From a virus (taxonomy: Duplodnaviria; Caudoviricetes), in IMG/VR virus record IMGVR_UViG_3300049988_000286, positions 435,573-499,572 of that record: DNA of 64,000 bases; one strand, 5' to 3'. Both the position numbers and the translations under genes were made by a program. The notes below the pieces were generated by a model. That model ran no database searches. It was not told where the DNA came from and saw nothing but the letters and a program-made list of their open reading frames with translations. This document shows, in pieces, positions 4,970 through 18,479 of the stretch (positions within the stretch are counted from its first letter, which is position 1; every line of letters begins with the position of its first letter).

Positions 4970-5003
4970 CCCGGCATTGATCCGCGTCAGTAAAGGATTG
5001 TAT

Positions 5004-5543
5004 ATGAACGACTTTTCATCAATCCCTACGCTTTCCGAGGTGCGTCTCCTCCCCGATACCCATGCCATGCTCGCCGAACGACAGCCGGTCTTCGATTTCA
5101 CCCAAGACGGCAAAGATGCAGCAAAGCTGGCCGATCTTCTCACCGCCGCAATGCTGCGCTTCGGCGGAATCGGTCTTGCCGCCAACCAGATCGGTATTCC
5201 CACTCGCGCGTTCGCGATGATGATGCACGATCGCCCGGTTGTCCTGTTCAACCCTGTTTTGCTTGAACTCGACGCAGAGACGGTATCGTTAGAGGAGGGC
5301 TGCTTGACCTTCCCTGATCTCTTCCTCAACATCGCGCGGCCACGGGGTTGTCGCGTCATCTACCACGATCCCACTGGTCAACGCACCAACGATGTCCTTG
5401 ACGGCTGGGATGCACGCGTCGCCATGCATGAGATCGATCATCTTGATGGCGTGGTATTTACGAGCAAGGCCTCCCGCCTTCATCTCCAGATGCAACGAGA
5501 GCGTCTTCGCAAGGCGAAGAAGAAGGCTGCGCGTCGCAAATGA
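5004..5543 (+). CDS. def: Peptide deformylase
   Basis: All three PDF motifs: GIGLAANQ, EGCLT, HEIDHLDG; SD-like AAGGA upstream of ATG 5004. Confidence 0.93.
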   Translation: MNDFSSIPTLSEVRLLPDTHAMLAERQPVFDFTQDGKDAAKLADLLTAAMLRFGGIGLAANQIGIPTRAFAMMMHDRPVVLFNPVLLELDAETVSLEEGCLTFPDLFLNIARPRGCRVIYHDPTGQRTNDVLDGWDARVAMHEIDHLDGVVFTSKASRLHLQMQRERLRKAKKKAARRK

Positions 5544-6705: not shown

Positions 6706-7523
6706 TGCGTGACCTCATCAATCTGATCGAGGGGGCGGGCGTCACCTACCGGGTTTCACAAGGACCAGACACCTACCGCTTCATTTACGATAATCATCCC
6801 AGCGTCTTCCATGACAAGAGGATCAAGTACTTTGATCCCAAGGAGAGCGTGAGGGAGATTCACGTGATCGCAGAAATGGGTGATCTCGTAATCGGCATGG
6901 CGGGAATGCAAGTCAATCCGCATGATACGGAGCAACTCTGGATTAAGTTCATTTCGGTCGATCCCGCCTATCAAGGGCGCGGCATCGGCAAGACTCTCCT
7001 GCGCCACATCTACCTCTATGCTGATGAGCATGGCTTCAAGATGGCACCGGGGAGTTTCTCACCGGAGGGAGAGCGTTTACGCCATCTTCATGATGAATGG
7101 GATAAGGAATTCCCACGCGTCGCCTATGACCGTGACAAGAACGGTAACTACATGAACTCCAAGGGTCAGATCGTCCGCATGAACGAGGGTCATTCGTGGA
7201 GCCAGTGGGTGCGGCCCGGCGACGAGATGGTCACCATCGATGTCGAGAAGGTCAGGGCATCATGGGCGCTCGACCGAGACTTCTATTTCGATGATGGTGA
7301 CCACCCCAACGCGATCCGGGGACGGGTGTCTCGTTTCAACCAATGGCTGGAGCGCGGCGAAGCAATCGGCTTGCCTGAACTGTGCCTCAATCCATCCGGG
7401 GAGATTACCTTCATCAACGGTCGCCATCGGTTCGTGGCGCTGATGCAACGCGGCGTCGAGAGTCTCCCCGTCGCGGTTCCGGTAGATCAGGCTGACGAGT
7501 TTCGTCTGCGGTTCGGAAAATAG
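6705..7523 (+). CDS. GNAT acetyltransferase fused to a ParB/Srx-like domain
   Basis: Start MRDLINLIEG (TGATG overlap); GNAT motif A VDPAYQGRGIGKTLL; C-terminal INGRHRFVAL ParB-like motif. Confidence 0.7.
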   Translation: MRDLINLIEGAGVTYRVSQGPDTYRFIYDNHPSVFHDKRIKYFDPKESVREIHVIAEMGDLVIGMAGMQVNPHDTEQLWIKFISVDPAYQGRGIGKTLLRHIYLYADEHGFKMAPGSFSPEGERLRHLHDEWDKEFPRVAYDRDKNGNYMNSKGQIVRMNEGHSWSQWVRPGDEMVTIDVEKVRASWALDRDFYFDDGDHPNAIRGRVSRFNQWLERGEAIGLPELCLNPSGEITFINGRHRFVALMQRGVESLPVAVPVDQADEFRLRFGK

Positions 7524-7524
7524 T

Positions 7525-7557
7525 TGTTGACACCCAAAAGCTCGTGTGAGATAAATA
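7525..7557 (+). promoter_or_regulatory. Promoter of the Tyr/His tRNA cluster (TTGACA plus ATAAATA)
   Basis: TGTTGACACCC-N15-ATAAATA; same architecture at 18108-18140 on the minus strand. Confidence 0.7.
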
Positions 7558-7562
7558 CTCCT

Positions 7563-7607
7563 ATGAACACGCAGAGCCATCACACCTATTATCATTACCA
7601 CGCGTAA
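7563..7607 (+). CDS. His/Tyr-rich leader peptide MNTQSHHTYYHYHA
   Basis: ATG 5 nt after TAAATA; 7 of the last 9 codons are His or Tyr; followed by alternative hairpins and Tyr/His tRNAs. Confidence 0.7.
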   Translation: MNTQSHHTYYHYHA

Positions 7608-7643
7608 GCGGGGTCGTGGTAACGCGTCCTCGTTTCGGGGACG
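7595..7643 (+). promoter_or_regulatory. Attenuator-like alternative hairpins
   Basis: 1:2 TTACCACG(7595-7602)/CGTGGTAA(7615-7622); 2:3 CGGGGTCGTG-GTAA-CGCGTCCTCG (7609-7632); 3:4 CGTCCTCG/CGGGGACG (7625-7643). No U-tract after 3:4. Confidence 0.55.
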
Positions 7644-7728
7644 ATGAAGGTGTGAAAGAGCCAGCGTGGCACTCTCCCCATAGTTGAACCCGCGAAGACG
7701 CAGATGATTTGCGTATCATGTTGCTAGT

Positions 7729-7812
7729 GGGTCGGCTGGACACGAGTGAGTCCACCTGACTGTAAATCAGACGCTTTGGCTGTGAGGGTGCAAATTCCTT
7801 CCCGGCCCACCA
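7729..7812 (+). tRNA. tRNA-Tyr(GTA)
   Basis: Acceptor GGGTCGG/CCGGCCC, A73, encoded CCA, anticodon loop CTGTAAA, long variable arm; T-loop reads TGCAAATT rather than TTCRANT. Confidence 0.85.
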
Positions 7813-7837
7813 AGCAACCAAAGAACAGTGATCAGGT

Positions 7838-7911
7838 GCGGCCGAGGCTGACTTGGATGAGGCGCGCGGTTGTGATCCGCGAGATAGTGAGTTCGAACCT
7901 CACCGGTCGCC
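7838..7911 (+). tRNA. tRNA-His(GTG), copy 1
   Basis: Acceptor GCGGCCG/CGGTCGC, anticodon arm CGCGG-TTGTGAT-CCGCG, T arm GTGAG-TTCGAAC-CTCAC; -1 base is T, C73, CCA not encoded. Confidence 0.85.
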
Positions 7912-7930
7912 CCTGAACACTGTTCACCTT

Positions 7931-8024
7931 GGGAGGTGCCCCCGCTCGCCGGTTGTAACCCGGTGGTCTCTAATAAGGGTGGGAAGCATTGAGGCGATGG
8001 GTGCAATTCCTACACCTCCCACCA
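7931..8024 (+). ncRNA. Atypical D-armless tRNA-like RNA with GTA anticodon
   Basis: 8-bp acceptor GGGAGGTG/CACCTCCC plus ACCA, 4-bp T stem, arm GCCGG-TTGTAAC-CCGGT, 9-nt linker instead of a D arm, ~33-nt variable region. Confidence 0.65.
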
Positions 8025-8027
8025 CGT

Positions 8028-8102
8028 GGCGTTGGTAGCTCAATGGTAGAGCGCTCGATTGTGGATCGAGATACGCGGGTTCGATCCCCGTCCTTCGCCC
8101 CA
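8028..8102 (+). tRNA. tRNA-His(GTG), copy 2
   Basis: G-1:C73, D arm TAGCTCAATGGTAGAGC, anticodon arm CTCGA-TTGTGGA-TCGAG, GGTTCGATCC T arm, CCA; two U-U mismatches in the acceptor stem. Confidence 0.88.
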
Positions 8103-8130
8103 GACCTTCTAACAAGTCCCTAAATATGTC

Positions 8131-8508
8131 ATGCGCAACTTCATCGATATCGTCAACGAAACTGTTATGTCGGATTCCGACACCTACTATTATGTTGTTG
8201 GGAAGGTGCGCGACCTCTATACGATGAGGGCAACAATCGACGGCTATTGCGAAGATGGCGTGATCTACCTCGATCTTATTTCGGTAGACGATGCCGGTAA
8301 CGGTGTCGGCACAGAGATGATGAAGGAAATATGCTTCAACGCGGATGATCACCACATCGCCATAGAGCTTGAAGCGGGATCACACGGTCGAGGCAATATC
8401 AGTCAGAGAAAGCTGGAAGATTGGTATGGCCGGTTTGGTTTCAAGAAAACTGGCGCGGTCTCAAGCGAAGACCATCCCTATATGCGCAGAGAACCCTCTG
8501 CTACTTAA
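8131..8508 (+). CDS. GNAT-family acetyltransferase with capsid-targeting-like N-terminus
   Basis: MRNFIDIVNE start 4 nt after TAAATA; DAGNGVGTEMM motif A and WYGRFGF. Confidence 0.7.
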   Translation: MRNFIDIVNETVMSDSDTYYYVVGKVRDLYTMRATIDGYCEDGVIYLDLISVDDAGNGVGTEMMKEICFNADDHHIAIELEAGSHGRGNISQRKLEDWYGRFGFKKTGAVSSEDHPYMRREPSAT

Positions 8509-8596
8509 ACATTACAACAACACAACAAGTTGTTGTTTTACATTCATGCAACTCTGATCTCTCCTGATAGTTATTACATCACATTAGGAGATAGTT

Positions 8597-8944
8597 ATGA
8601 AACGACTTGCACTTACCTTGGCCGCATTGGCTACCCTCGCCCCCGTCACTGCATCCGCGCAGCGCTACGACAATCGCTACGAGTTTCGCGGCTACGATCG
8701 CGGCGGCAATCCCGTCTACAGCTACCACGATCGGCGATACAATCGGGACTGGCGAAATGATCGTCGTGACTACCGTAGAGATCGCCAGTGCCGTGACGGC
8801 ACTACCGGAACGGTGATCGGCGCTATCGCGGGTGGACTATTGGGCAGAACCGTTGACACCCGTGGTGACCGAACGCTCGGTACGGTCGTCGGAGCCGGAG
8901 GTGGAGCCTTGGCGGGGCGGGCGCTGGATCGTAATTGCCGATGA
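8597..8944 (+). CDS. Glycine-zipper 2TM domain protein (alphaproteobacterial surface-antigen type)
   Basis: Signal peptide, R/D/Y-rich linker, GTVIGAIAGGLLG...GTVVGAGGGALAG zipper; strong SD AGGAG. Confidence 0.8.
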   Translation: MKRLALTLAALATLAPVTASAQRYDNRYEFRGYDRGGNPVYSYHDRRYNRDWRNDRRDYRRDRQCRDGTTGTVIGAIAGGLLGRTVDTRGDRTLGTVVGAGGGALAGRALDRNCR

Positions 8945-9221
8945 AGGATGGCGAATGCTCGCTGCGGATTAAGTAGATCGCCTCATCGGTTGAATTATAT
9001 CCATGCCGAGGGGCGATCGTCATGCGTGAGATCGCGGATCGGTCAAAGCGGCTCGATGTCGAGGGCGAGATCGGCACAACTGGAATGGGTCAAGATCGCG
9101 ACCGAAGTTGACCGCTCGTTGATTACTGCTTGCCCCTCTCCATGCTGCACAGGCTTTGCGCAGAAGGGGCAAACAGTGGCTGCGAGTGTCACCTCTTTGA
9201 CTCGGTGGACGGTGAAGATGT

Positions 9222-9494
9222 TCAATGCGCGTCTCCCCAAGACGATCCAAATTCGCCGCAGTTGCGGTTGATTGAATCCATTACGCCATCTACCTCTGTC
9301 ATGAAGTGTTCTTGATCGGTCTGGTCGAGACCACGATACATCCTTACATTTGCTGCAATAATAGCGCGACAGTTTTTCGGAAGACCGCTGCTGCCATAAA
9401 TTGGTTTGCTGTTGTCCAGCAGTTCGGCGTCCGCTGAAACACATCCCGTCACGAGCAACACACCCATCAGCACACCCATCAGCATCTTCTTCAA
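9222..9494 (-). CDS. Putative lipoprotein
   Basis: Hydrophobic N-terminus ending LVTG-C. Confidence 0.5.
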   Translation of the reverse strand: MKKMLMGVLMGVLLVTGCVSADAELLDNSKPIYGSSGLPKNCRAIIAANVRMYRGLDQTDQEHFMTEVDGVMDSINRNCGEFGSSWGDAH

Positions 9495-9593
9495 GTCGGC
9501 ATCTCCCTACGCGTTCTATCAACGAACTATCACACAGGTACGACTCCTTGTCAAAGCGCCTTCGTGCTGGCACCACCGCGTGAGGAGACGCCG

Positions 9594-11770
9594 ATGACCC
9601 GATATCAATTTGAATGCTCGATGCCCGAGTTGGCCGATGGTCGCGAGATCGACATCGAGGACGGCGGTCAGGCCGTGATCTTCCATCCCACGCCGGAATT
9701 CGAACAGGGCGGTGACGGCTTTTTCCACGTCCGGCTACAGAGTTGGGAAGACGGAGCCGCGAAACGCGAGGAATCGTTTGCAAAGGCGCACTCCTTGATG
9801 CGCGAGTTTTCGGGTCGTCGTCTCCGGGTCACTGTTGAAACCATTGACTGATCATCATAAGAAAGAGGCTCGCTTCAACCTCGTCATCATGGTAGCGAGC
9901 TTGATCTTCTCTGCACTGGCGCTTGGAATGTGGTTCTATGATTGATGGCATCGTTATCGCCGACCGAGTTCTAGCCGGGTCGGTGAAGGTCTGGCTCGAC
10001 GAGGAATGCCAGCGCTGCTACGAACACGTAGATTGCGATTACGATGATCTCGACAGGCTCATCTTGCGGCTCACCGATCAGCGGCTGGGTCACAATGTAG
10101 CGGTCGATGTCCTTGATCTCGATAACGACGATCGAGGCGTTTACGGCATCGTTTTGATCGAGGCCGCGCCGATAATCATGAATGAAGTGCTGGGGAAGCT
10201 GAATGCAAACAATGAAGGTTGAGCGCCTCGGCGAGGTGCGAGTCACCGCGCGGAGAGGCGATGGAAGTGAGTTCAGCTTCATGACCGCGACGCCTGATCG
10301 CTACATGGCTCCGGAACCGTTTAATCGTCGAGCGTGGCTACTGGAGCGTGAACAGCGCTACCTTCGCCTCCTAGACAACGATCTTACGAACGGCGCTCGG
10401 GCGCGTCTGGTCGAGGCTCTCGAATGGATCAGGAGTGAACTTGCTTCGCGCCATTGAGGCTATCCGGCTGGTGGGTTTCCGGCTCGGATTGTGGCGTGGT
10501 TTTCACGGACCCACGCTGCCGTGGAACCTACAAGAGCGCGTCTCTACCCTCTTCATCATCTGGCGCGATAGTCGGTTTGAGCGTCCCGTGCCCGCCGCTC
10601 GCGCCTTCTTCCTCCGCCATGGGATCGAGGTTCGTTTCAGTCATAAAGCGAAGGCGCGCCTTGCTCGCAAGCGCGATGTCACGGCCTACCAAGCCTTCGT
10701 CGATGCTGCCAAGAAAACCTTCCAGATCGACGATCATCTCCTCCCGATCTTCATCGATTGGTGCCGTGAGAATGAGTGTGAGATAGCTGTCCAGACGCCG
10801 GACCAGTATCACCCCCAGCATCGACCGTGGTCCAAAGTCACAGCGCTGGGTCAGGATAGTTTCACCCTGATCATGCTCGGTTGTGACATCTCGCCTAACC
10901 GATACACGGATGAAGCAACAATAAGGCGCGTCCACTAAACCCGTGATAGGGTCATGTCTCCTCACTACTAGGAGATTATTATGTCAATCGATCAAGATAC
11001 ACGCTTTTTCGCCGGAGCATCTTCACGCAGCTTTAGCGACGCTTCTGGTCCGAAGGCAAGCCGTGAGGACACCCCCGGCTTCGTCAACGCCTCGGATCAC
11101 CAGTTCACCGACATTTCATCGGAGGCCGAACGTGTCTACAATTTCGGGCAGAAGGGTTTCGTCCGCATCAATCGTCCGCTGCAACTCGCGGTGAGCGACT
11201 CGGGTGGCCACCGTATTTTCTCCGCCGATGGCCGCTCCCACTACATTCCCGCTGGCTGGATCGAGATCACATGGACGACGCGACCGGGTTCTCCGCACTT
11301 CGTTAAGTGACGGGGTATTGACGGGGTGGTGGTGCGCGCCTATCTCGCCGCCTCCACCCTTTAAGGAGATGGCTGCTATGCATCCTGTCGATGCCACAAG
11401 TCCGAAATGGCGGATCGCCAACAATTCGATCCGCATCCTGTACACGCACCCAACGACCCATTGGTCCTTGGCCTCCATGACCTACGACGACATCCCGGAT
11501 CGTATCGGGATACGTTGGAACGGCGATGTTACCGATCGTGGCGATCTCGGTTACCCGAGCGCTCGCGGCAATGGTGCGTGGTTCATCCTTCCCGATCCCC
11601 TTGACGGTCTCGTCCGCGCCATGATCCCGATCTGGAACGGCAACCATGGTGGGGTCGACGTTGCCCCACCCGCGTCGGCATTCGAGAAGATCATGGAAGG
11701 GATGCAGGACGCCATCGCACACGCGGGTGGTGATCACACCCGAGGCCGCATCGCCAATCAGAGCGCGTAA
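9594..11770 (+). other. Run of small hypothetical genes (9594-9851, 9938-10222, 10203-10457, 10435-10938, 10981-11310, 11378-11770)
   Basis: Co-oriented, tightly packed ORFs, several with SD (GAGGAG, AGGAG); no recognisable domains. Confidence 0.55.
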
Positions 11771-12495
11771 ATCGAACCCTTCGCCGTGTTGATCAGCGTG
11801 GCGAAGATTTCGTTCAACTCCTGTTCGAATTCTTCCACAATGCGGTGCTCGTCGATGTGGTTCAGTCGAACCGCTCCGCGAAGCATGTATTGAGCGAAGC
11901 ATTCCGGCAGGAGTTCGAATTGCGAGTTGAGCGTGCCGTCTCGGCAAGACTTGGACGTGCCGATCATACACGCCAGCGATTTTGGATTCTCATCCCAGAA
12001 CACACCACCGAGACGTGATAGCGTGCGCGCTAGAGCCGCGCTCGCTTCCCCGGACAACCTGTATGCCCCACTCGACACCGCGTTGTGGAACGGTCCTGAA
12101 CGGCCATTCTGGAAGGCGTGATACATGCGGTGGGCGATGATCCAACCCGTGAGTGGTTTGCGGGCGCTGCCTTCGTTCTGGGTGAAGATCACGCCGATGT
12201 TTTGGGGCTTCGGCTCGATCATTCCTTCAAGGAACGACAGAGAGGCGAGGACACCCTGCCGACCGTCATAGTCGCCCCCAATCGCGATCGAGAGCGCCGA
12301 CGTGGGATCGATCTTGAGATCGACGAGGTAGAGGTTGACATCGCAGACGCTGGACTGCCATAGCCGATGAATCTTCTCCAAGGCTTTTTTGTTCTGCACC
12401 AAGCGAACATCATCGGGACGAAACGACGAATCGCCGCCCATGTCCGAGAGTGGCGTGATGGAGAGAGGCATCTCGACGAGTTCGTGGTAGCGCAT
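11758..12495 (-). CDS. Hypothetical protein (HRxxH zincin-like variant) with capsid-targeting-like N-terminus
   Basis: MRYHELVEMP start 4 nt after TAAATA; WIIAHRMYHAF motif. Confidence 0.55.
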   Translation of the reverse strand: MRYHELVEMPLSITPLSDMGGDSSFRPDDVRLVQNKKALEKIHRLWQSSVCDVNLYLVDLKIDPTSALSIAIGGDYDGRQGVLASLSFLEGMIEPKPQNIGVIFTQNEGSARKPLTGWIIAHRMYHAFQNGRSGPFHNAVSSGAYRLSGEASAALARTLSRLGGVFWDENPKSLACMIGTSKSCRDGTLNSQFELLPECFAQYMLRGAVRLNHIDEHRIVEEFEQELNEIFATLINTAKGSIYAL

Positions 12496-12502
12496 CCAGT
12501 AT

Positions 12503-13030
12503 TTAGGTGAAGCGAAACTTCGTTTTGACCAGCATCTCGACGCTGGGGTCACGGAAGCGGAAGGTTATGCTTCCTCCGGGCAACGACTCGATCTCATAAT
12601 CGCGCTTGATTCGGTCACCCATTTCGAAGAGGAAGTCTTGGATTTCTGCACGCTTCTCATCTGGGAAGATCAGCGCTTCACTCTTCGGCTTATCGAGCCT
12701 CGCCTCAACGGCTTGTAGATCAGCGGCGTGGACGAAGCAGAGTTTAACCTCATACCAGTTGCATGACTGGATGTAGACATCACCCTGACAGGTCTCGCGC
12801 AGCATAGCGAGAAAGTCATCGCGGTGCCAAAAGGCCTTCCGCATTTGTTCTGATTTGATACGCAGTATGGCGACCTCGCTACCCGCTCCGTCAATCTCAT
12901 GGAAGAAATTGGCGAAATCGGCGAAGCCCGCCATCGGATCGTGGACTTCTTCGAGCGACGAGGCACCGCGATCTGTCCAGCACATCTGGCTGATCTCGAT
13001 CTGATAGGCGACGAAGTGAATTTGCATCAC
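12503..13030 (-). CDS. Hypothetical protein
   Basis: 175 aa ORF; its TAA stop overlaps the next TAAATA box. Confidence 0.5.
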   Translation of the reverse strand: MMQIHFVAYQIEISQMCWTDRGASSLEEVHDPMAGFADFANFFHEIDGAGSEVAILRIKSEQMRKAFWHRDDFLAMLRETCQGDVYIQSCNWYEVKLCFVHAADLQAVEARLDKPKSEALIFPDEKRAEIQDFLFEMGDRIKRDYEIESLPGGSITFRFRDPSVEMLVKTKFRFT

Positions 13031-13049
13031 CGCCCTATAGGCGAACTAT

Positions 13050-13583
13050 CTACGCCGTGCCAGCGAAATCACATGCGTGGAAGGATTGTCGCTCGAAGAC
13101 GATCATCTTCTCACCCTGCTGCACGCTTCGATGTAGCGCAGGACCGATGCTAACCTCTGCTCCCGTCCCGTTCCGATACACGAATTTGCGCAAGCGTCGC
13201 GCCGGTGGAAGCGTCATCGTGTGGTAGGTAGCACCTCGCCGACTATCTCCGAGCCGCTTCGCGATACGCTTCCAAGCGGCATTGTGGCCATCTGCGCGCA
13301 GGGAGGGTTTAGCAAAAGCGATGAGGTGGGCTACCTCGTGGGGAAGGATGCTCTTCGTCATCATCTCCCAATCGCGCAACAGGGCTTCACGGTTGAACCT
13401 TAACGAATATGTATAACCCAAGTCTTCATGAGGTCGCTGCGCCGCCTCTCCGGCCTTCTGGCCCCGGAGATCGAACGATACAGTGATCCTCCCTAAATCA
13501 ACTCCGTATAGTTCCTCTGCGCGTCTCACGCATTCGTTAACCAGTTTCCTGAACTCTGTTTGTGGCCGTAGGCGGTGCTGCAT
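13050..13583 (-). CDS. SprT-like metalloprotease
   Basis: PHEVAHL...GHNAAWK and LRGQKAGEA motifs of the SprT family. Confidence 0.8.
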   Translation of the reverse strand: MQHRLRPQTEFRKLVNECVRRAEELYGVDLGRITVSFDLRGQKAGEAAQRPHEDLGYTYSLRFNREALLRDWEMMTKSILPHEVAHLIAFAKPSLRADGHNAAWKRIAKRLGDSRRGATYHTMTLPPARRLRKFVYRNGTGAEVSIGPALHRSVQQGEKMIVFERQSFHACDFAGTA

Positions 13584-13818
13584 ACGAGCATTATAGGGAA
13601 TCCCTCTGCCAGTTTCAAATTACCTCGGATTTGGCAGTGAGAGGTCGGGGTGCGAGGGTTGCCCCGGCAGGGGTGGGCGACCCGTTGGTGCACGCTTCAT
13701 CGGACGTGCTCTCATCGGTGGCGCGCCCGCAACGGGAAACCATATCTGGAAGCCAATTGTCGCCGCCAAAGGGGAACATGCAGCAACAAAGAAACAAAGG
13801 CCCAAGAGGGCCTTTGCT

Positions 13819-14304
13819 TTAGTCACGGGGGAGTTCATCCGGGCAGCCCGGCGGCGGCACGTCTGTGGGCTGCGGCTGGGGGTAGGGCTGCGGGAAACCC
13901 TGTGGGGGGTAATAGGGCGGATGGTAGGGGTAGGGCTGCTGATACTGCGGCATTGGCGCTGGCGTGGGCTCTGGCGCGGCGGGAGCCACCACTTCGGCAA
14001 TCGTCTCACCATCGCCGCCACTGGCCTCGAAGCCATCCTTCGAAACGCGGATCGAGCGGCGGTTGATCGCGAACCCGAGTGTGACGAGCACAACCAGTGA
14101 TCCAGTCAGCGACAGGAGCAAAGCCTCGCCTAGAATCTTGATACGCTCGGGCGCGGTCTCGATCGGCCAACCGCCGCGCCACATCACCCAACAAAGGGCA
14201 CCGGCGAAGACGGTCATTGCGACCGAGCCAAAGATGCTGGCGATCAACGCAACGGCGGCGCGCCATTCGCGATGTGGGTTCTCTGGGAGCTTGGGAAACT
14301 TCAT
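13819..14304 (-). CDS. Two-TM membrane protein with Pro/Gln/Tyr-rich tail, late promoter (holin candidate)
   Basis: Two hydrophobic segments; TAAATA 5 nt before ATG. The holin role is speculative. Confidence 0.5.
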   Translation of the reverse strand: MKFPKLPENPHREWRAAVALIASIFGSVAMTVFAGALCWVMWRGGWPIETAPERIKILGEALLLSLTGSLVVLVTLGFAINRRSIRVSKDGFEASGGDGETIAEVVAPAAPEPTPAPMPQYQQPYPYHPPYYPPQGFPQPYPQPQPTDVPPPGCPDELPRD

Positions 14305-14339
14305 ACCCCTATTTAGGGGCAGGATGAGTTCCCGTGTCG

Positions 14340-14940
14340 TTAGCCGATCACGGTCATCAGGGGGCGGCGGGTGCTACCGTTGCCCGACTGGCCAAGCGCC
14401 ATTGGCTTACCTCCCGTGACGCTGATCTCCGCACGCTGGTAGCGATCCTGCGCTGCCTTTGGAATAGCTCGGTCGAGCATGTCGCGCAGACCCTCGATGC
14501 TCTCCTTGCCGCCAAGCCGGATAGTGCTCTCGTTGCTACCGCTTCGAACGATCAGACTCGCGCCACCGCGATCGTCGATGTCGATGGACAACGATGTGTC
14601 CCACGGCAGACTGCCCGTGAGTGTGATCGTCTCTTCAATCATTGGATATCTCCTCCGAGTCAGCGATGTCCCGGTCGGGCTGCTTCTCGCCCCCGATAAC
14701 GCGCCATTGGATACTCTCCAAGCCCCGATCCTCAATCTTCTCTGCGGCGCGGGTCAAGGCAGCGGCGAGGGCGAGCATGGTGGCGGAATTGAAACCGAGG
14801 TGAAGCGTCGCGATGCTGTCCCCGGTGCGGATTTGCAATTCAGAATACAGGGCAGAGCCGTTGCTCGCTTGATTGGTGATCACCGAGTAGGTGGAGCCCC
14901 AAGGGGCATAGTCGTGGCGGTAGAATTGTTCTTCAATCAT
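14340..14940 (-). other. Two hypothetical genes (14340-14642, 14635-14940)
   Basis: Overlapping co-oriented ORFs; SD GGAGGAG before 14642. Confidence 0.5.
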
Positions 14941-16310
14941 TAAAGAGATATAGGATGATCTTCAAAACCTTCAAGTACCCAAGCGGTTCTACTATTAACA
15001 TAAGGGTCTACACCAGTGATGACTTGCTGTGACATCCTCATCTTCTTCGGGAGATCAGTATAGATACTGACCGGTGGGCGTGCGTGATACAGTTCCTTCT
15101 TCATCTCGTAGGTGGGCATGAAGAAACGCTGTGTTCCACGCGCGCGCATCTTGCGAATGAAGTCGAGCAGCATGGCTTCGCTCAACCCTTTCAGCTTCTG
15201 ATTGACCTCCGGCTCCATGATCTTCGGCAGATCGGTTTGCACCTCATCGATCCAGCAATCGCGTCCGAAGAGCGTGAAACGCACCCAGCCCAGAGCAACG
15301 ACGGTATAACGTTCATCGCCTCCACCAAGCGACAGACCAGCCTTTGGTGGTTTGGGTGCGGCGGGTGGCTTGGGGTGGTTGCTCGCATAGTGGTAATTGA
15401 CCAGCGCTTTGCAATCGGGGATCGAGAGATCAAGGCCGTCTTTGATTGCTTCCACCGGGAGACCGAAGACACAGGCGATGTTCTTACGATCAAGGAAGAT
15501 ACGCTGATCGTCCTGACCATCCATCTTCCATTCGACGATGTAGTTGCGCGCCGATTTAACCACTCGCTCGATCGTCGTGGTCTCACTCGGGTTAGCTCGC
15601 AGATCATCGATTGAGATGTCTCGACCCCCGAGTTGTTTCACCAACGCGGAGAAGAATGGAGTGTTGCCCCAGCGCTGCTGCTTCAATTCCTTGACCGAGA
15701 TGCTCTCGCGATCGTTGGTTTCGAACCAGCGCATCAGGGCGAGTTGATCTTGGTTCAAGCCCGCGAGCGATTTGCGTTCGCCCTGACGAGGAAGGCGGTG
15801 CCCGCGTGAGAACTCGCGGCGACGGTCCTCGTTCTGCTTATCGAACAGCGTTTGAAGAGTGGTGTCGAAGTTGGAGAGTTGGCGCAAAACATGGATGTTG
15901 CCGGGAAACTCCTCAAACGCCTCACGCTGCAACTCGACGGGGATACGATCGAACATCTCACACGTCTGACGAATATTACGCTTCATCGCGATTGCGACAA
16001 CATCGAACGGGATCGGGCGCTTGACCTTGTACAGGACAGTCGGTCCGAATTTTTCAACTGCGAGTCGGAGACAAGTATCGCTAGGCTCCGGCAGGTATTC
16101 CAAAGCGGAAGCCCAGTTCTCACACGCGTATTCCTGTGCTTCCTCGTGGGGGTTCTTGATCGCTCGGATCAGCGCCACATTGCGACCGAGAGCAATCATC
16201 TGCACTTGCCTCGACGGCGCTTCCATATGACGAATATTGAAGGGATCGGCGTAAATGAGCGCGAGTTGCTCCGCCGTTGATTCTGACTGCTCGAAGATGG
16301 TTGAACGCAT
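14940..16310 (-). CDS. Multi-domain protein with capsid-targeting-like N-terminus
   Basis: MRSTIFEQ start 4 nt after TAAATA; N-terminal helical repeats; C-terminal WVRF...WIDEVQTD motif. Confidence 0.55.
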   Translation of the reverse strand: MRSTIFEQSESTAEQLALIYADPFNIRHMEAPSRQVQMIALGRNVALIRAIKNPHEEAQEYACENWASALEYLPEPSDTCLRLAVEKFGPTVLYKVKRPIPFDVVAIAMKRNIRQTCEMFDRIPVELQREAFEEFPGNIHVLRQLSNFDTTLQTLFDKQNEDRRREFSRGHRLPRQGERKSLAGLNQDQLALMRWFETNDRESISVKELKQQRWGNTPFFSALVKQLGGRDISIDDLRANPSETTTIERVVKSARNYIVEWKMDGQDDQRIFLDRKNIACVFGLPVEAIKDGLDLSIPDCKALVNYHYASNHPKPPAAPKPPKAGLSLGGGDERYTVVALGWVRFTLFGRDCWIDEVQTDLPKIMEPEVNQKLKGLSEAMLLDFIRKMRARGTQRFFMPTYEMKKELYHARPPVSIYTDLPKKMRMSQQVITGVDPYVNSRTAWVLEGFEDHPISL

Positions 16311-16313
16311 CCC

Positions 16314-17587
16314 CTATTTAGGGGCGGGCTCGAAATGCAGCTTGCGGCCACGCCGCGACAGGTAGCCGACTACCTTACCGGGAAGACGGGAATCCGAGTA
16401 GGAGTCGCAGTTGGGACCGAATTCGAAAACCGCAGAGGGCGCGGCCTCTGTGATATCACGGAAGTCACCCGCAATCGCGTAGCAGACATTGGGAAGGGCC
16501 AAGCGAGCATTCTCGGCGTGATGATGCATCAGCGCTACCCGGCGGCGATAGACTCCGCTCTCGTTCCAGAACGAGTTCTTATACGCGTAGGCGAAACGAC
16601 CAATGGTGCGGCCAGCGACGACTTTGGTCTGCGACCGCAAGGTGTAGGTGTAGACGCCCATCATTGTTCTCCTTGACGCACCTCCTACCCTCAATAGTTC
16701 GGTGCGTCAAGGATAATTGTTTATTCCCAGCCCGCCTTGCGGAGGAATTTGTTGATCGCAGCGTCGTCGGCGTACTCCCAGCTATCCACCGAGGTTACGA
16801 AGCTGTCGTGCTGGAAACCCTTATGGTTTATCAGGCAGGCGTCACCATCATTGTCCACCTCGATGACCAACCCCACCTTGTCTCCTGTTTCGATGAGGGT
16901 ACCGACGCGGATTTCACCCTCGCCTCCGGGAATGCTGTCGGCATCGAGGACGAGCGCCATCAGGGCCTTCACCGCTCCGGTCTGGCAGCCGAAGTCAGCC
17001 TCACCGATGATCCGCGCGGCCTCCGCTACCTTCGGGGGCAGGGTCTCACCCGCGATCCCGTCACGGGCACTGCGGGTCCGATCCCGAATCTTCTCCGGAT
17101 CGATCAGGTCGCGTAACTTCATCACTTTCCTCCATCTCTCGCTCGATAACGATTTTGTCGTGCTGACGCTGACGGCGAGCGTGCTCACGCTTCGCCTCGC
17201 CGCGCTGCGCCGACGAGTACATCTCGTCGGTTTGTGCGGTATCTACCTGTTTGTCAGGTCGGAAGTAGTTGCTTGGGCTTCCCATGCCGCGAGGGGTAAC
17301 GCGACGCGGTGGGGGCGTCAATCGGATCGAGTCAGATCGAAGATGGAGACCTTCGGGGCAGCGCGATCCTCTTCCACCATTTGGGTATGATGGGTCGGCT
17401 CGCCGAACAGTTTCTGGTTCAGCTTCTCGAAATTCTCGACACTGGCCTTGGCGCGCTTGAAGGCAGGATCATCGCTGCAACCCCGCATCGCATCCATGAA
17501 CGACGAACGGTCCGCCACCGCATAGGAGAGCGCGGAGCGGATGATGTTGAGATCATTGGCGGTGATGGTGGGCTTACGATGCGCCAT
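16314..17587 (-). other. Hypothetical genes (16314-16664, 16721-17122, 17318-17587)
   Basis: Co-oriented ORFs with SD-like elements; no recognised domains. Confidence 0.5.
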
Positions 17588-17803
17588 GGATCATTCCACC
17601 CATGTAGAGTATAAGTGCCCCGCCGATTATATTGGCAAGACCGATTAGTTCTCGTCGAGAAGCCCGCGTCTCCGCTGGGTTGGTGGAAAGATACCATCCC
17701 GAAAACAGGATGACTGCCGCACACAGACTAATCACTAATGACATGTCTTCTTCCCTTCACTCTTGGTGTAGGGGATAGTTCGATGACAGTCAAGATAAAT
17801 GAA

Positions 17804-17888
17804 TGGTCCCCCGGACGAGAATCGAACTCGCTGATGCTTTCGCAAACAGGCGTGAGAAACCTGCGTCCTGCCATTAGACTTCCGGGGG
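17804..17888 (-). tRNA. tRNA-Glu(CTC) with long variable arm
   Basis: Acceptor CCCCCGG/CCGGGGG, A73, CCA; anticodon arm CAGGT-TTCTCAC-GCCTG; variable arm containing TGC-GAAA-GCA; T arm GCGAG-TTCGATT-CTCGT. Confidence 0.85.
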
Positions 17889-17889
17889 A

Positions 17890-17973
17890 TGGCCGCGCTG
17901 ACGGGAATCGAACCCGCTTCTGCTTTCGCAACAGGAGTGAAAGTCCTGCGTCCGCCCATTAGACTTCAGCGCG
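17890..17973 (-). tRNA. tRNA-Glu(TTC) with long variable arm
   Basis: Acceptor CGCGCTG/CAGCGCG, G73, CCA; anticodon arm CAGGA-CTTTCAC-TCCTG; variable arm TGC-GAAA-GCA; T arm GCGGG-TTCGATT-CCCGT. Confidence 0.85.
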
Positions 17974-18005
17974 ATAGGCTGGTCTGGATGGATCATTAAC
18001 GGGGG

Positions 18006-18069
18006 AGAAACAGAACCAAAATCACCCGCGCCGTCGAGGCGCGTGAAAGCGCACTCAACCGATCGAGCG
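18006..18069 (-). terminator. Attenuator: protector 1:2, antiterminator 2:3, terminator 3:4 plus U-tract
   Basis: 1:2 CGCTCGA-TCGG-TTGAGTG (18069-18052); 2:3 GAGTGCGC-TTTCAC-GCGCCTC (18056-18036); 3:4 CGCGCC-TCGAC-GGCGCG (18043-18027) then GGTGA-TTTTGGTTCTGTTTCT. Confidence 0.75.
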
Positions 18070-18102
18070 TTCGCGTTCCATGAGGGTGTAGGTCGTGTTC
18101 AT
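18055..18102 (-). CDS. Leader peptide MNTTYTLMERERSIG (GAA-CGC-GAA-CGC)
   Basis: ATG 5 nt after TAAATA; same ATGAACACG start as the His/Tyr leader; the 3' end overlaps attenuator helix 1:2. Confidence 0.65.
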   Translation of the reverse strand: MNTTYTLMERERSIG

Positions 18103-18107
18103 GTTTT

Positions 18108-18140
18108 TATTTATGCCTGAACGGCATCCGGGCGTCAACA
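18108..18140 (-). promoter_or_regulatory. Promoter of the tRNA-Glu cluster
   Basis: TGTTGACGCCC-N15-ATAAATA, identical spacing to 7525-7557. Confidence 0.7.
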
Positions 18141-18182
18141 TCTTTTTTGACCTTCGTGCAATCACGCTGCTACCCTCACGTG

Positions 18183-18479
18183 ATGACGCGTTCGAAACTC
18201 GCAGCCCGTTCACGCGATGACTGGCGCTGCCACACCCTGTCGGTCGAATCGCTGTTCGATGTCCCTAAAGTTAAATGGCTCGTCCGGTTCAACTCCGCCT
18301 TCGACAGCGATCAACCCCAGACGTGGCTCGTTGATTCCGTCGCATACGAGAAAGGAGAGGAAGTGGCGGCTTGGCTCATCGATAGTTGCGACGGAGACTT
18401 CGCCATATTGCGTTATCGCGGCCACGTCATATTCGAGCGAGAGGATGATGCTCGCCTCTGCTACCTGACCTTTGCTTAG
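18183..18479 (+). CDS. Hypothetical protein (F-x-x-x-x-D-A C-terminal motif family)
   Basis: Ends VIFEREDDARLCYLTFA. Confidence 0.5.
   Translation: MTRSKLAARSRDDWRCHTLSVESLFDVPKVKWLVRFNSAFDSDQPQTWLVDSVAYEKGEEVAAWLIDSCDGDFAILRYRGHVIFEREDDARLCYLTFA

Follow-up and report, generated by a model that had tools for sequence, protein, structure and literature searches.

Candidate leader-peptide cassettes ahead of tRNA gene clusters in a phage related to Rak2 and 121Q

We investigated a 64,000-nucleotide (nt) stretch of phage DNA (hereafter the window), which forms the final 64 kb of the 499,572-bp IMG/VR virus record IMGVR_UViG_3300049988_000286 (positions 435,573 to 499,572; 57% GC). Two tRNA gene clusters, one for His and Tyr and one for Glu, lie on opposite strands of the window, and each is preceded by a promoter-like element, a short open reading frame (ORF) and predicted RNA hairpins, a unit that we call a cassette. 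The features of the two cassettes are given below, in window positions with the strand in brackets; elsewhere, genome positions refer to the whole record.

The His/Tyr cassette comprises:
7517-7532 (+), predicted promoter: upstream A-tract AAAATAG and -35 element TTGACA (7527-7532), by sequence and motif match
7550-7557 (+), predicted -10 region GATAAATA, 17 bp past the -35, by sequence and motif match
7563-7607 (+), leader ORF MNTQSHHTYYHYHA with its stop, 14 codons
7578-7601 (+), putative regulatory run CAT CAC ACC TAT TAT CAT TAC CAC
7608-7633 (+), helix A:B, GCGGGG.CGUG / CGCG.CCUCGU, 1 nt past the stop, candidate anti-hairpin, -15.4 kcal/mol
7625-7643 (+), hairpin B:C, CGUCCUCG-UUU-CGGGGACG, which excludes A:B; purine-rich tail, no U-tract
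7698-7728 (+), weak terminator-like hairpin ACGCA-GAUGAUU-UGCGU with tail AUCAUGUUGCUAGU, right before the first tRNA
7729-7812 (+), tRNA-Tyr (GUA) with a long variable arm (Infernal 29.2 bits; ARAGORN at relaxed threshold)
7838-7913 (+), tRNA-His (GUG)
7931-8024 (+), tRNA-like RNA with acceptor stem, CCA end and GUA anticodon loop and no canonical D arm, from sequence and fold; called by neither ARAGORN nor Infernal
8029-8102 (+), tRNA-His (GUG), 61.3 bits

The Glu cassette comprises:
18133-18148 (-), predicted promoter: A-tract AAAAAA (18148-18143) and -35 element TTGACG (18138-18133)
18108-18114 (-), predicted -10 region ATAAATA, with ATG 5 nt later
18055-18102 (-), leader ORF MNTTYTLMERERSIG with its stop, 15 codons; GAA at 18078-18076 and 18072-18070, stop UGA at 18057-18055
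18044-18080 (-), helix 1:2 from minimum-free-energy pairs: 5' arm 18080-18063 with both GAA codons, 3' arm 18058-18044 with the stop codon
18033-18059 (-), helix 2:3, predicted antiterminator, GAG.GCGC-UUUCAC-GCGCCUC, from masked folds
18006-18043 (-), helix 3:4, predicted terminator from a terminator scan: CGCGCC-UCGAC-GGCGCG (18043-18027) and U-rich tail GGUGAUUUUGGUUCUGUUUCU
17890-17973 (-), tRNA-Glu (UUC), 84 nt, extra variable-arm hairpin, encoded CCA
17804-17888 (-), tRNA-Glu (CUC), 85 nt, extra variable-arm hairpin, encoded CCA

Both cassettes open on the same module. Exactly two sites of the window match the pattern TGTTGACRCCC-N15-ATAAATA-N5-ATGAACACG (47 nt), namely 7525-7571 (+) and 18094-18140 (-); 100 dinucleotide-preserving shuffles of the window gave 0.00 matches on average. 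This bears out the claim of a sequence-only reading of this DNA that one promoter and start module stands ahead of both tRNA clusters on opposite strands, and the leaders and hairpins do diverge past the shared start, as it had also stated, after codon 3.

An A-tract lies just upstream of TTGAC(A/G) in all seven cassettes that we found in the genome and ahead of its transfer-messenger RNA (tmRNA) gene. The -10 region takes the forms GATAAATA and CATAAATA in the two window cassettes. The motif TATAAATA is rare, with 11 copies in 499,572 bp; four of these sit in tRNA or tmRNA cassettes, each 17-18 bp downstream of TTGACA, and TAAATA therefore reads as the putative -10 of a consensus host-type promoter with an A-tract. 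The sequence-only reading had instead taken TAAATA for a T4-type late box through which the cassettes could fire both early and late, a claim that these counts do not sustain. A T4-type late promoter, which has no -35 and many copies before late genes, was set aside on motif counts, a gp55-like late sigma factor not having been searched for. In both window cassettes the ATG stands 5 nt after TAAATA, from which we predict a leaderless or near-leaderless mRNA, in line with the earlier suggestion; the conserved AAC ACG after the ATG may serve initiation.

We then looked at the promoter across the genome, which encodes 41 tRNA genes and one tmRNA gene by ARAGORN, clustered by amino acid, with a few tRNAs added by Infernal. 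A relaxed pattern (TTGAC-N15-21-TAWAWW) gave 12 matches, 8 of which immediately precede the tmRNA gene or a cluster of tRNA genes. Seven of these eight promoters precede a short ORF, and in six an ATG or GTG follows TAAATA by 5 nt. The forecast that more cassettes would be found in this genome thus held: in five more clusters the promoter and a leader precede tRNAs that the leader matches, and at the tmRNA gene the promoter stands alone. The seven leaders and the tRNAs that follow them are:
HHTYYHYH (His/Tyr leader, window), then Tyr, His, the GUA tRNA-like RNA, His
ERER (Glu leader, window), then two Glu
MNTNTTFVAGRGVVANRANRG, then Met, Gly, Gly, Arg, Arg, Val, Asn, Ala and others
VTNSHALLPFEAQRQQR (ending QRQQR), then Gln(UUG), Gln(CUG)
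MSTMTLSTRKRKRL (ending RKRKRL), then three Lys
47-codon leader ORF with a Shine-Dalgarno sequence, containing LPLLPLLPLPLL, then three Pro, four Leu
MNTTTSSTTISWSITFG, then two Ile, Trp, Thr, Thr, three Ser

Together the cassettes cover about 17 amino acids. What stands of the proposed reusable cassette is an A-tract/sigma70-type promoter, an MNT start, swapped regulatory codons and matching tRNAs; the early-plus-late firing does not. Several leaders are multivalent (His+Tyr, Ile+Thr+Ser+Trp, Pro+Leu, Gly+Arg+Val+Asn+Ala), which recalls the mixed codons of the thrL (Thr/Ile) and ilvGMEDA (Ile/Val/Leu) leaders, where one leader likewise matches several downstream functions. In the phage, however, the mixture follows the identities of the tRNAs in the operon rather than a shared biosynthetic pathway. 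In the Pro/Leu leader it follows individual anticodons: its run TTG CCA CTA CTG CCG CTT CTC CCC TTG CCG CTT CTC contains one codon per downstream anticodon (CAA, UGG, UAG, CAG, CGG, GAG, GGG).

The sequence-only reading had proposed a test of whether leader codons correlate with downstream anticodons, and they do. We scored each leader by the fraction of its residues after codon 3 whose tRNA is encoded downstream; of the 5040 ways to assign the seven leaders of this genome to the seven payloads, the true one alone scores best. In the His/Tyr leader, seven of the eight consecutive codons of the regulatory run specify His or Tyr, and HHTYYHYH is the sole 8-residue window with at least seven His/Tyr among 796,326 stop-free six-frame windows of the genome; it lies ahead of the genome's only His/Tyr tRNA cluster.

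A match between regulatory triplets and the anticodons of downstream tRNAs is also what direct sensing of a T-box-like kind would give, in which leader codons pair with the anticodons of uncharged tRNAs and no ribosome takes part. We give this next to no credence. The triplets all fall in one frame, from an ATG at the predicted transcript start to a stop at the first switch arm, with runs of up to 12 consecutive regulatory codons, and neither a T-box nor any other Rfam family was found on the leaders, even at E ≤ 1. At this threshold, a search of window positions 7400-18300 returned only tRNA and a chance-level match to snoRNA sR2 (E=0.6, 9465-9537, outside the leaders); His_leader, Trp_leader, Thr_leader, Leu_leader and other Rfam leader families likewise gave no match, and the same was true of the whole window at gathering thresholds.

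To place the cassettes in a wider context, we scanned IMG/VR and a metagenome collection with TTGAC-N17-21-TAAATA-N4-6-ATGAACAC. The pattern yields many chance matches, and in every match with a short ORF and close same-strand tRNAs downstream, leader and payload agreed. Sixteen further cassettes lie outside this genome, in viral and metagenome contigs of 30-59% GC. Cassettes from other contigs, by locus, are:
L004, leader with LFWRF, then Trp, Phe
L012, AGA/AGG-rich leader, then Arg(CCU)
L013, leader with LDEREED, then Asp
L053, leader with LDEREDD, then Asp, Glu, Glu
L015, leader with RQRQQ, then Gln
L018, leader with KRK, then Lys
L052, V/I/A-rich leader, then Val, Ile
L107, G/S/F/Y-rich leader, then Tyr, Phe, Ser, Gly
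L017 and L059, leaders with T/S/I/W, then Ile, Ser, Trp, Thr
L099, leader with ERER, MNTNTLLERERCG, then three Glu
L161-L164 (542-kb relatives), His/Tyr leader MTNTVHHTYTTYHA, from a neighbour-gene look-up
L167, His/Tyr leader MTNKVHHTYYHYHA, from a neighbour-gene look-up
L169, His/Tyr leader MNTQSHHTYTHYTIA, from a neighbour-gene look-up
L165, near-identical copy of the His/Tyr cassette, from a neighbour-gene look-up
L166, Glu leader MMNHIALLESERQSF, then four Glu, from a neighbour-gene look-up

Homologous cassettes whose payloads differ also differ in their leaders: those with Glu only read E-R/S-E-R, and those with Asp and Glu read D-E-R-E-(E/D)-D. Over 23 cassettes (the 7 of this genome and 16 from other contigs), leader and payload match at 0.41 on average, compared with 0.13 when the pairs are shuffled, and none of 200,000 permutations reached the observed value. 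As a cellular control, we took one genome each from 185,579 bacterial and archaeal species; the pattern matched 66 times, and none of the 66 combined a short leader with cognate tRNAs.

These data bear on a simpler explanation, namely that the promoters are constitutive, strong promoters for stable RNAs, the mini-ORFs being by-products or serving 5' end protection or transcription-translation coupling, with no regulatory role for the codon match. The promoter can indeed occur alone: the tmRNA gene is driven by TTGACA-N18-TATAAATA without a leader ORF, and in Sinorhizobium phage Phosso the same promoter type stands directly on tRNA-Ser, again with no leader. Still, the match between codons and payload goes far beyond chance over at least 12 specificities and a GC range of 30-59%, it was never seen at the pattern hits in cellular genomes, and the spacing from regulatory codons to stop and from stop to first helix arm is conserved, so that we consider this explanation highly improbable.

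When the leader of the Glu cassette is folded as free RNA, helix 1:2 and the 3:4 hairpin both form. In masked folds with a ribosome on the stop codon, the 3:4 terminator, whose stem has 6 G-C pairs, forms; with the A site on either GAA, helix 2:3 forms instead and takes the terminator's 5' arm. The same switching is seen in masked folds of L166 and L099, three homologues in all, and the 3:4 terminator is kept in both, although the helix sequences of L099 differ (UCUACGGG/CCCGUAGA and GCGCCCG/CGGGUGC). In each of the three Glu cassettes, a pair of in-frame GAA codons lies 12-15 nt ahead of the stop. As modelled, this would be a textbook, complete trp-type attenuator in which every structural element of the scheme is present. 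As in trpL, the regulatory codons fall in region 1 and the stop in region 2, regions 2 and 3 would form the antiterminator, regions 3 and 4 would pair into a terminator followed by U-rich sequence, and 12-15 nt separate the regulatory codons from the stop. The Glu cassette differs in that its output would be the sensed tRNA itself, in a direct closed loop, in that it is carried by a phage, and in that promoter and MNT start are common to phage cassettes of different specificity.

In the His/Tyr cassette, two predicted helices compete for one arm. In five sequences from four lineages, arm B can pair either with arm A, at -13 to -17 kcal/mol, or with arm C, at -12 to -18 kcal/mol; arm A begins 1-2 nt past the stop codon, and the RNAalifold consensus is A:B. 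The B:C pairing is kept though both strands vary, with a closing G-C that becomes U-A in L167 and a U-A/G-C that becomes G-U/C-G in L161. Directly before the first tRNA, all four lineages carry a hairpin of different sequence with a (U)GUUGCU-type tail, which may be a weak terminator. Past B:C lies a conserved C-rich stretch, CUCUCCCC (7672-7679), able to pair with the G-run of arm C; together with a possible pairing of His codons with GGUGUGA, it would suggest further long-range alternative folds. We thus model this cassette as a sensor of ribosome position whose off mechanism could be a weak terminator, Rho or 5' processing. Like the hisL attenuator of Enterobacteria, it has a 5' short ORF with a His run and overlapping alternative hairpins at the ORF end, with the ribosome's position selecting the fold. 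Unlike hisL, it would control tRNA genes rather than biosynthetic enzymes and sense Tyr as well as His; it also has a predicted leaderless start, no match to Rfam His_leader and a no-stall hairpin that lacks a U-tract.

Altogether, we think it probable that the two elements are ribosome-mediated leader-peptide attenuator cassettes controlling the phage's own tRNA operons. Judging from the sequence, host RNA polymerase would start at the sigma70-type promoter (A-tract, TTGACA, 17-18 bp spacer, TATAAATA-like -10), and from the geometry the transcript would begin at or beside the AUG, with a ribosome loading on the leaderless mini-ORF. The codons of this ORF are those read by the tRNAs encoded downstream. 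When charged tRNA is plentiful, the ribosome would reach the stop codon, in the first switch arm or 1 nt before it, and mask that arm, leaving the next hairpin free to fold; in the Glu cassette that hairpin would be a terminator with a U-rich tail, and transcription would end before the tRNA genes. Where there is too little of the tRNA, or where it is uncharged or cleaved, the ribosome would stall on the regulatory codons, the alternative helix would form and the polymerase would read through into the tRNA genes. The new phage tRNA would then relieve the stall, closing a direct negative-feedback loop: scarcity of Glu-tRNA(UUC), for instance, would activate the phage genes for tRNA-Glu, whose product would in turn shut them down.

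Several points weigh against this reading. We infer each step, from the start of transcription through translation of the leader to termination and regulation. A stall due to amino-acid starvation could not be lifted by extra tRNA, which makes the physiological signal uncertain. Some ten of the phage tRNAs stand outside any cassette; those for Cys, Leu(CAG), Arg(CCU), Leu(UAA) and Ala(CGC) and the two with a CUA anticodon come after protein genes, and no cassette is recognisable ahead of them. Two of twelve residues are Glu in the Glu leader, which by itself is no significant enrichment; this leader draws its support from conservation, and it has no GAG codon for the Glu(CUC) tRNA. Helix conservation comes from 3-5 sequences per cassette, too few for statistical covariation. 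In the His/Tyr homologues, minimum-free-energy folds of the whole leader disagree, and our reading of that cassette therefore rests on the local A:B and B:C helices. Finally, B:C is followed in four lineages by a conserved purine-rich tail and no U-tract, no terminator is called at this place by a terminator scan, and only a weak hairpin with a AUCAUGUUGCU tail stands ahead of the first His/Tyr tRNA.

The last of these points could mean that the same stalling sensor is coupled to another read-out, a Rho loading site or a block of the 5' processing or folding of the first tRNA, mainly in the His/Tyr cassette and also in the Gln cassette. Such a read-out would suit a B:C hairpin that lacks a U-tract and is followed by the C-rich stretch described above, and in the Gln cassette and in L162/L164 the hairpin by the tRNA overlaps or mimics the 5' acceptor strand of the tRNA. 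It is nevertheless unlikely: many family members, among them the Glu cassette, have canonical terminators, ordinary hairpins followed by U residues, in the stretch from leader to tRNA, and the weak terminator-like hairpin with its U-rich tail is kept before the first His/Tyr tRNA.

With respect to known systems, in silico analysis of the candidate attenuator cassettes shows a 5' short ORF whose frame and stop position are kept in homologues, cognate codons beyond chance and predicted mutually exclusive helices that depend on ribosome position; the genes directly downstream are tRNA genes, not genes for biosynthesis, transport or synthetases. T-boxes and the pheST (pheM) leader are alike in that genes of the decoding apparatus are turned on by antitermination when a specific charged tRNA runs short. 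The T-box, however, binds tRNA directly and regulates synthetase or transporter genes, and pheM controls a synthetase, not tRNA genes. The mechanism of attenuation is known, and what would be new here is the tRNA-gene target together with the closed loop. A full-text literature search returned no description of leader-peptide control of tRNA genes, in phages or elsewhere, which is not proof of absence.

Phage-encoded tRNAs, as in T4, T5 and mycobacteriophages, are discussed as compensating for the loss of host tRNAs or as countering host defence. Those phages too carry their own tRNA set, and the replacement of depleted or cleaved host tRNAs is plausible here as there; we know of nothing in the known cases on codon-sensing control of the tRNA genes. 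The present phage has a T4 gp23-like capsid protein, which is closest to those of jumbo phages of the Rak2/121Q group, the best match being Sinorhizobium phage Phosso with 66% identity. Neither Phosso nor Escherichia coli phage 121Q showed the cassette pattern in two pattern searches, a limited test. The whole stretch is present in one sequencing run only, a leaf metagenome; contigs of four other DNA runs are relatives of this phage, and no RNA run among those searched contains this DNA. Capsid kinship, tmRNA type and the leaf sample suggest an alphaproteobacterial host, though they are not proof of it. By blastn against cultured phages, both cassette regions gave either tRNA-length similarity to Caulobacter, Brevundimonas and Sphingobium phages or no match, and a synteny search in IMG/VR via the upstream GNAT gene gave no relatives, which came to light through a large protein database and look-ups of contigs.

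On balance we favour the view that a clade of jumbo phages with T4-type capsids, related to Rak2 and 121Q, carries a modular tRNA homeostat in which a leaderless mini-ORF gates each tRNA operon by sampling the codons that its own tRNAs read, and which tops up the tRNAs that the current host lacks or has lost, anticodon-nuclease defences being one possible cause of the loss. The sequence-only reading had gone further and seen in the cassettes mainly an inducible counter to anticodon nucleases (PrrC, RloC, PARIS, retron PtuAB; colicin E5/D-like enzymes may be added), which we hold to be possible and rather doubtful. The switch logic would respond to tRNA cleavage, an RNA ligase gene lies near the His/Tyr cassette in relatives, and some cassettes group tRNAs that we take to share a nuclease sensitivity (Lys; Glu, Gln and Lys with their modified U34; Tyr and His with Q34, the colicin E5 target). 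On the other hand, tRNAs for Gly, Ala, Val, Pro, Leu, Ser, Thr, Ile, Trp, Asn, Arg and Met come behind cassettes too, and this broad coverage points to general control by supply and demand. Coverage of about 17 amino acids fits a demand-driven tRNA supply at least as well as an anti-nuclease role, and it points to demands such as the codon use of a 57%-GC phage against the host tRNA pool, the loss of host tRNAs in infection, or growth in several hosts.

The control of phage tRNA genes is poorly understood, and these genes are usually framed in terms of codon usage or of the replacement of lost or degraded host tRNAs. If the homeostat reading is true, the phage would gauge decoding capacity codon by codon and supply tRNAs on demand, and its tRNA genes would be the first found to be regulated by ribosome stalling on their own codons. 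This would extend leader-peptide attenuation to a class of targets in which the product is the sensed molecule, and it would bear on the near-complete tRNA sets of large phages, on hosts of differing codon usage, on host tRNA turnover and on answers to tRNA-cleaving defences. The cassettes would also be a natural, portable set of codon-specific sensors of decoding capacity: as short, modular units with specificities for about 17 amino acids, they could find further use in reporting how available a given tRNA is.

Further observations concern the leaders and their surroundings. In the Glu, Lys, Gln and Asp leaders, regulatory codons alternate with CGN Arg codons (ERER, RKRKR, QRQQR, RQRQQ, KRK, DEREDD; window 18078-18067, genome 267672-267686 and 68400-68386, L015, L018, L053 and L013); these Arg codons may supply G+C for helix 1 or be there for another reason. 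About 100-200 nt past the leader in the Ile/Thr/Ser, Gly-Arg-Val and Pro/Leu cassettes and in L017 and L059, a short hairpin is followed by a conserved element, CUCUUUGACAUG or UCUUUGAAAUUG, which might be the -35 of a second promoter or a processing site. Upstream of tRNA-Ile(UAU), at genome ~393150-393215 (-), CTAAATA-N5-ATG opens a 5-codon ORF, MHQLI, whose last codon is the rare ATA read by that tRNA, some 40 nt downstream; this ORF may be a minimal eighth cassette. Recurrent short ORFs beginning MNT and lacking tRNAs (MNTLIIS, MNTIFINLIHIV, MNTKRRFAG) were set aside as chance matches before ordinary genes.

Among the RNA genes, the tmRNA (genome 15527-15913, outside the window; locus L039) is two-piece (permuted) and of alphaproteobacterial type. 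Both tRNA-Glu genes share the variable-arm hairpin UGCGAAAGCA, and their length of 84-85 nt is unusual for tRNA-Glu; many other phage tRNAs are 85-95 nt long (Met 91, Arg 91, Asn 87-89, Cys 91, Gln 88, Ile 95). The two tRNAs with a CUA (amber) anticodon, at genome 102238-102314 (+) and 106351-106425 (-), are labelled Pyl by ARAGORN, are confirmed as tRNAs by Infernal at 39-65 bits and may be suppressors.

Around the His/Tyr cassette, homology between the phage and a contig of run X2 starts exactly at window 7524, at the first base of the promoter module, with unrelated sequence upstream, which fits the cassette being a mobile module. A polypeptide deformylase gene lies 2 kb upstream of the cassette (4977-5543, +) and in relatives is adjoined by the RNA ligase gene (PF09414; L161 1812-3122), a neighbourhood that may have a bearing on tRNA repair. 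In L161-L164 (~8500-9520), a PD-(D/E)XK nuclease-like ORF and a short HisRS-like ORF (PF13393/PF00587) separate the Tyr from the His tRNAs within the His/Tyr cassette and would therefore be co-regulated by the His/Tyr leader. Genes flanking both window cassettes share an N-terminal motif (MRDLINLIE, MRNFIDIVNE, MRDYIDMITE), found at window 6687, 8131 and 18814 (-) and elsewhere.

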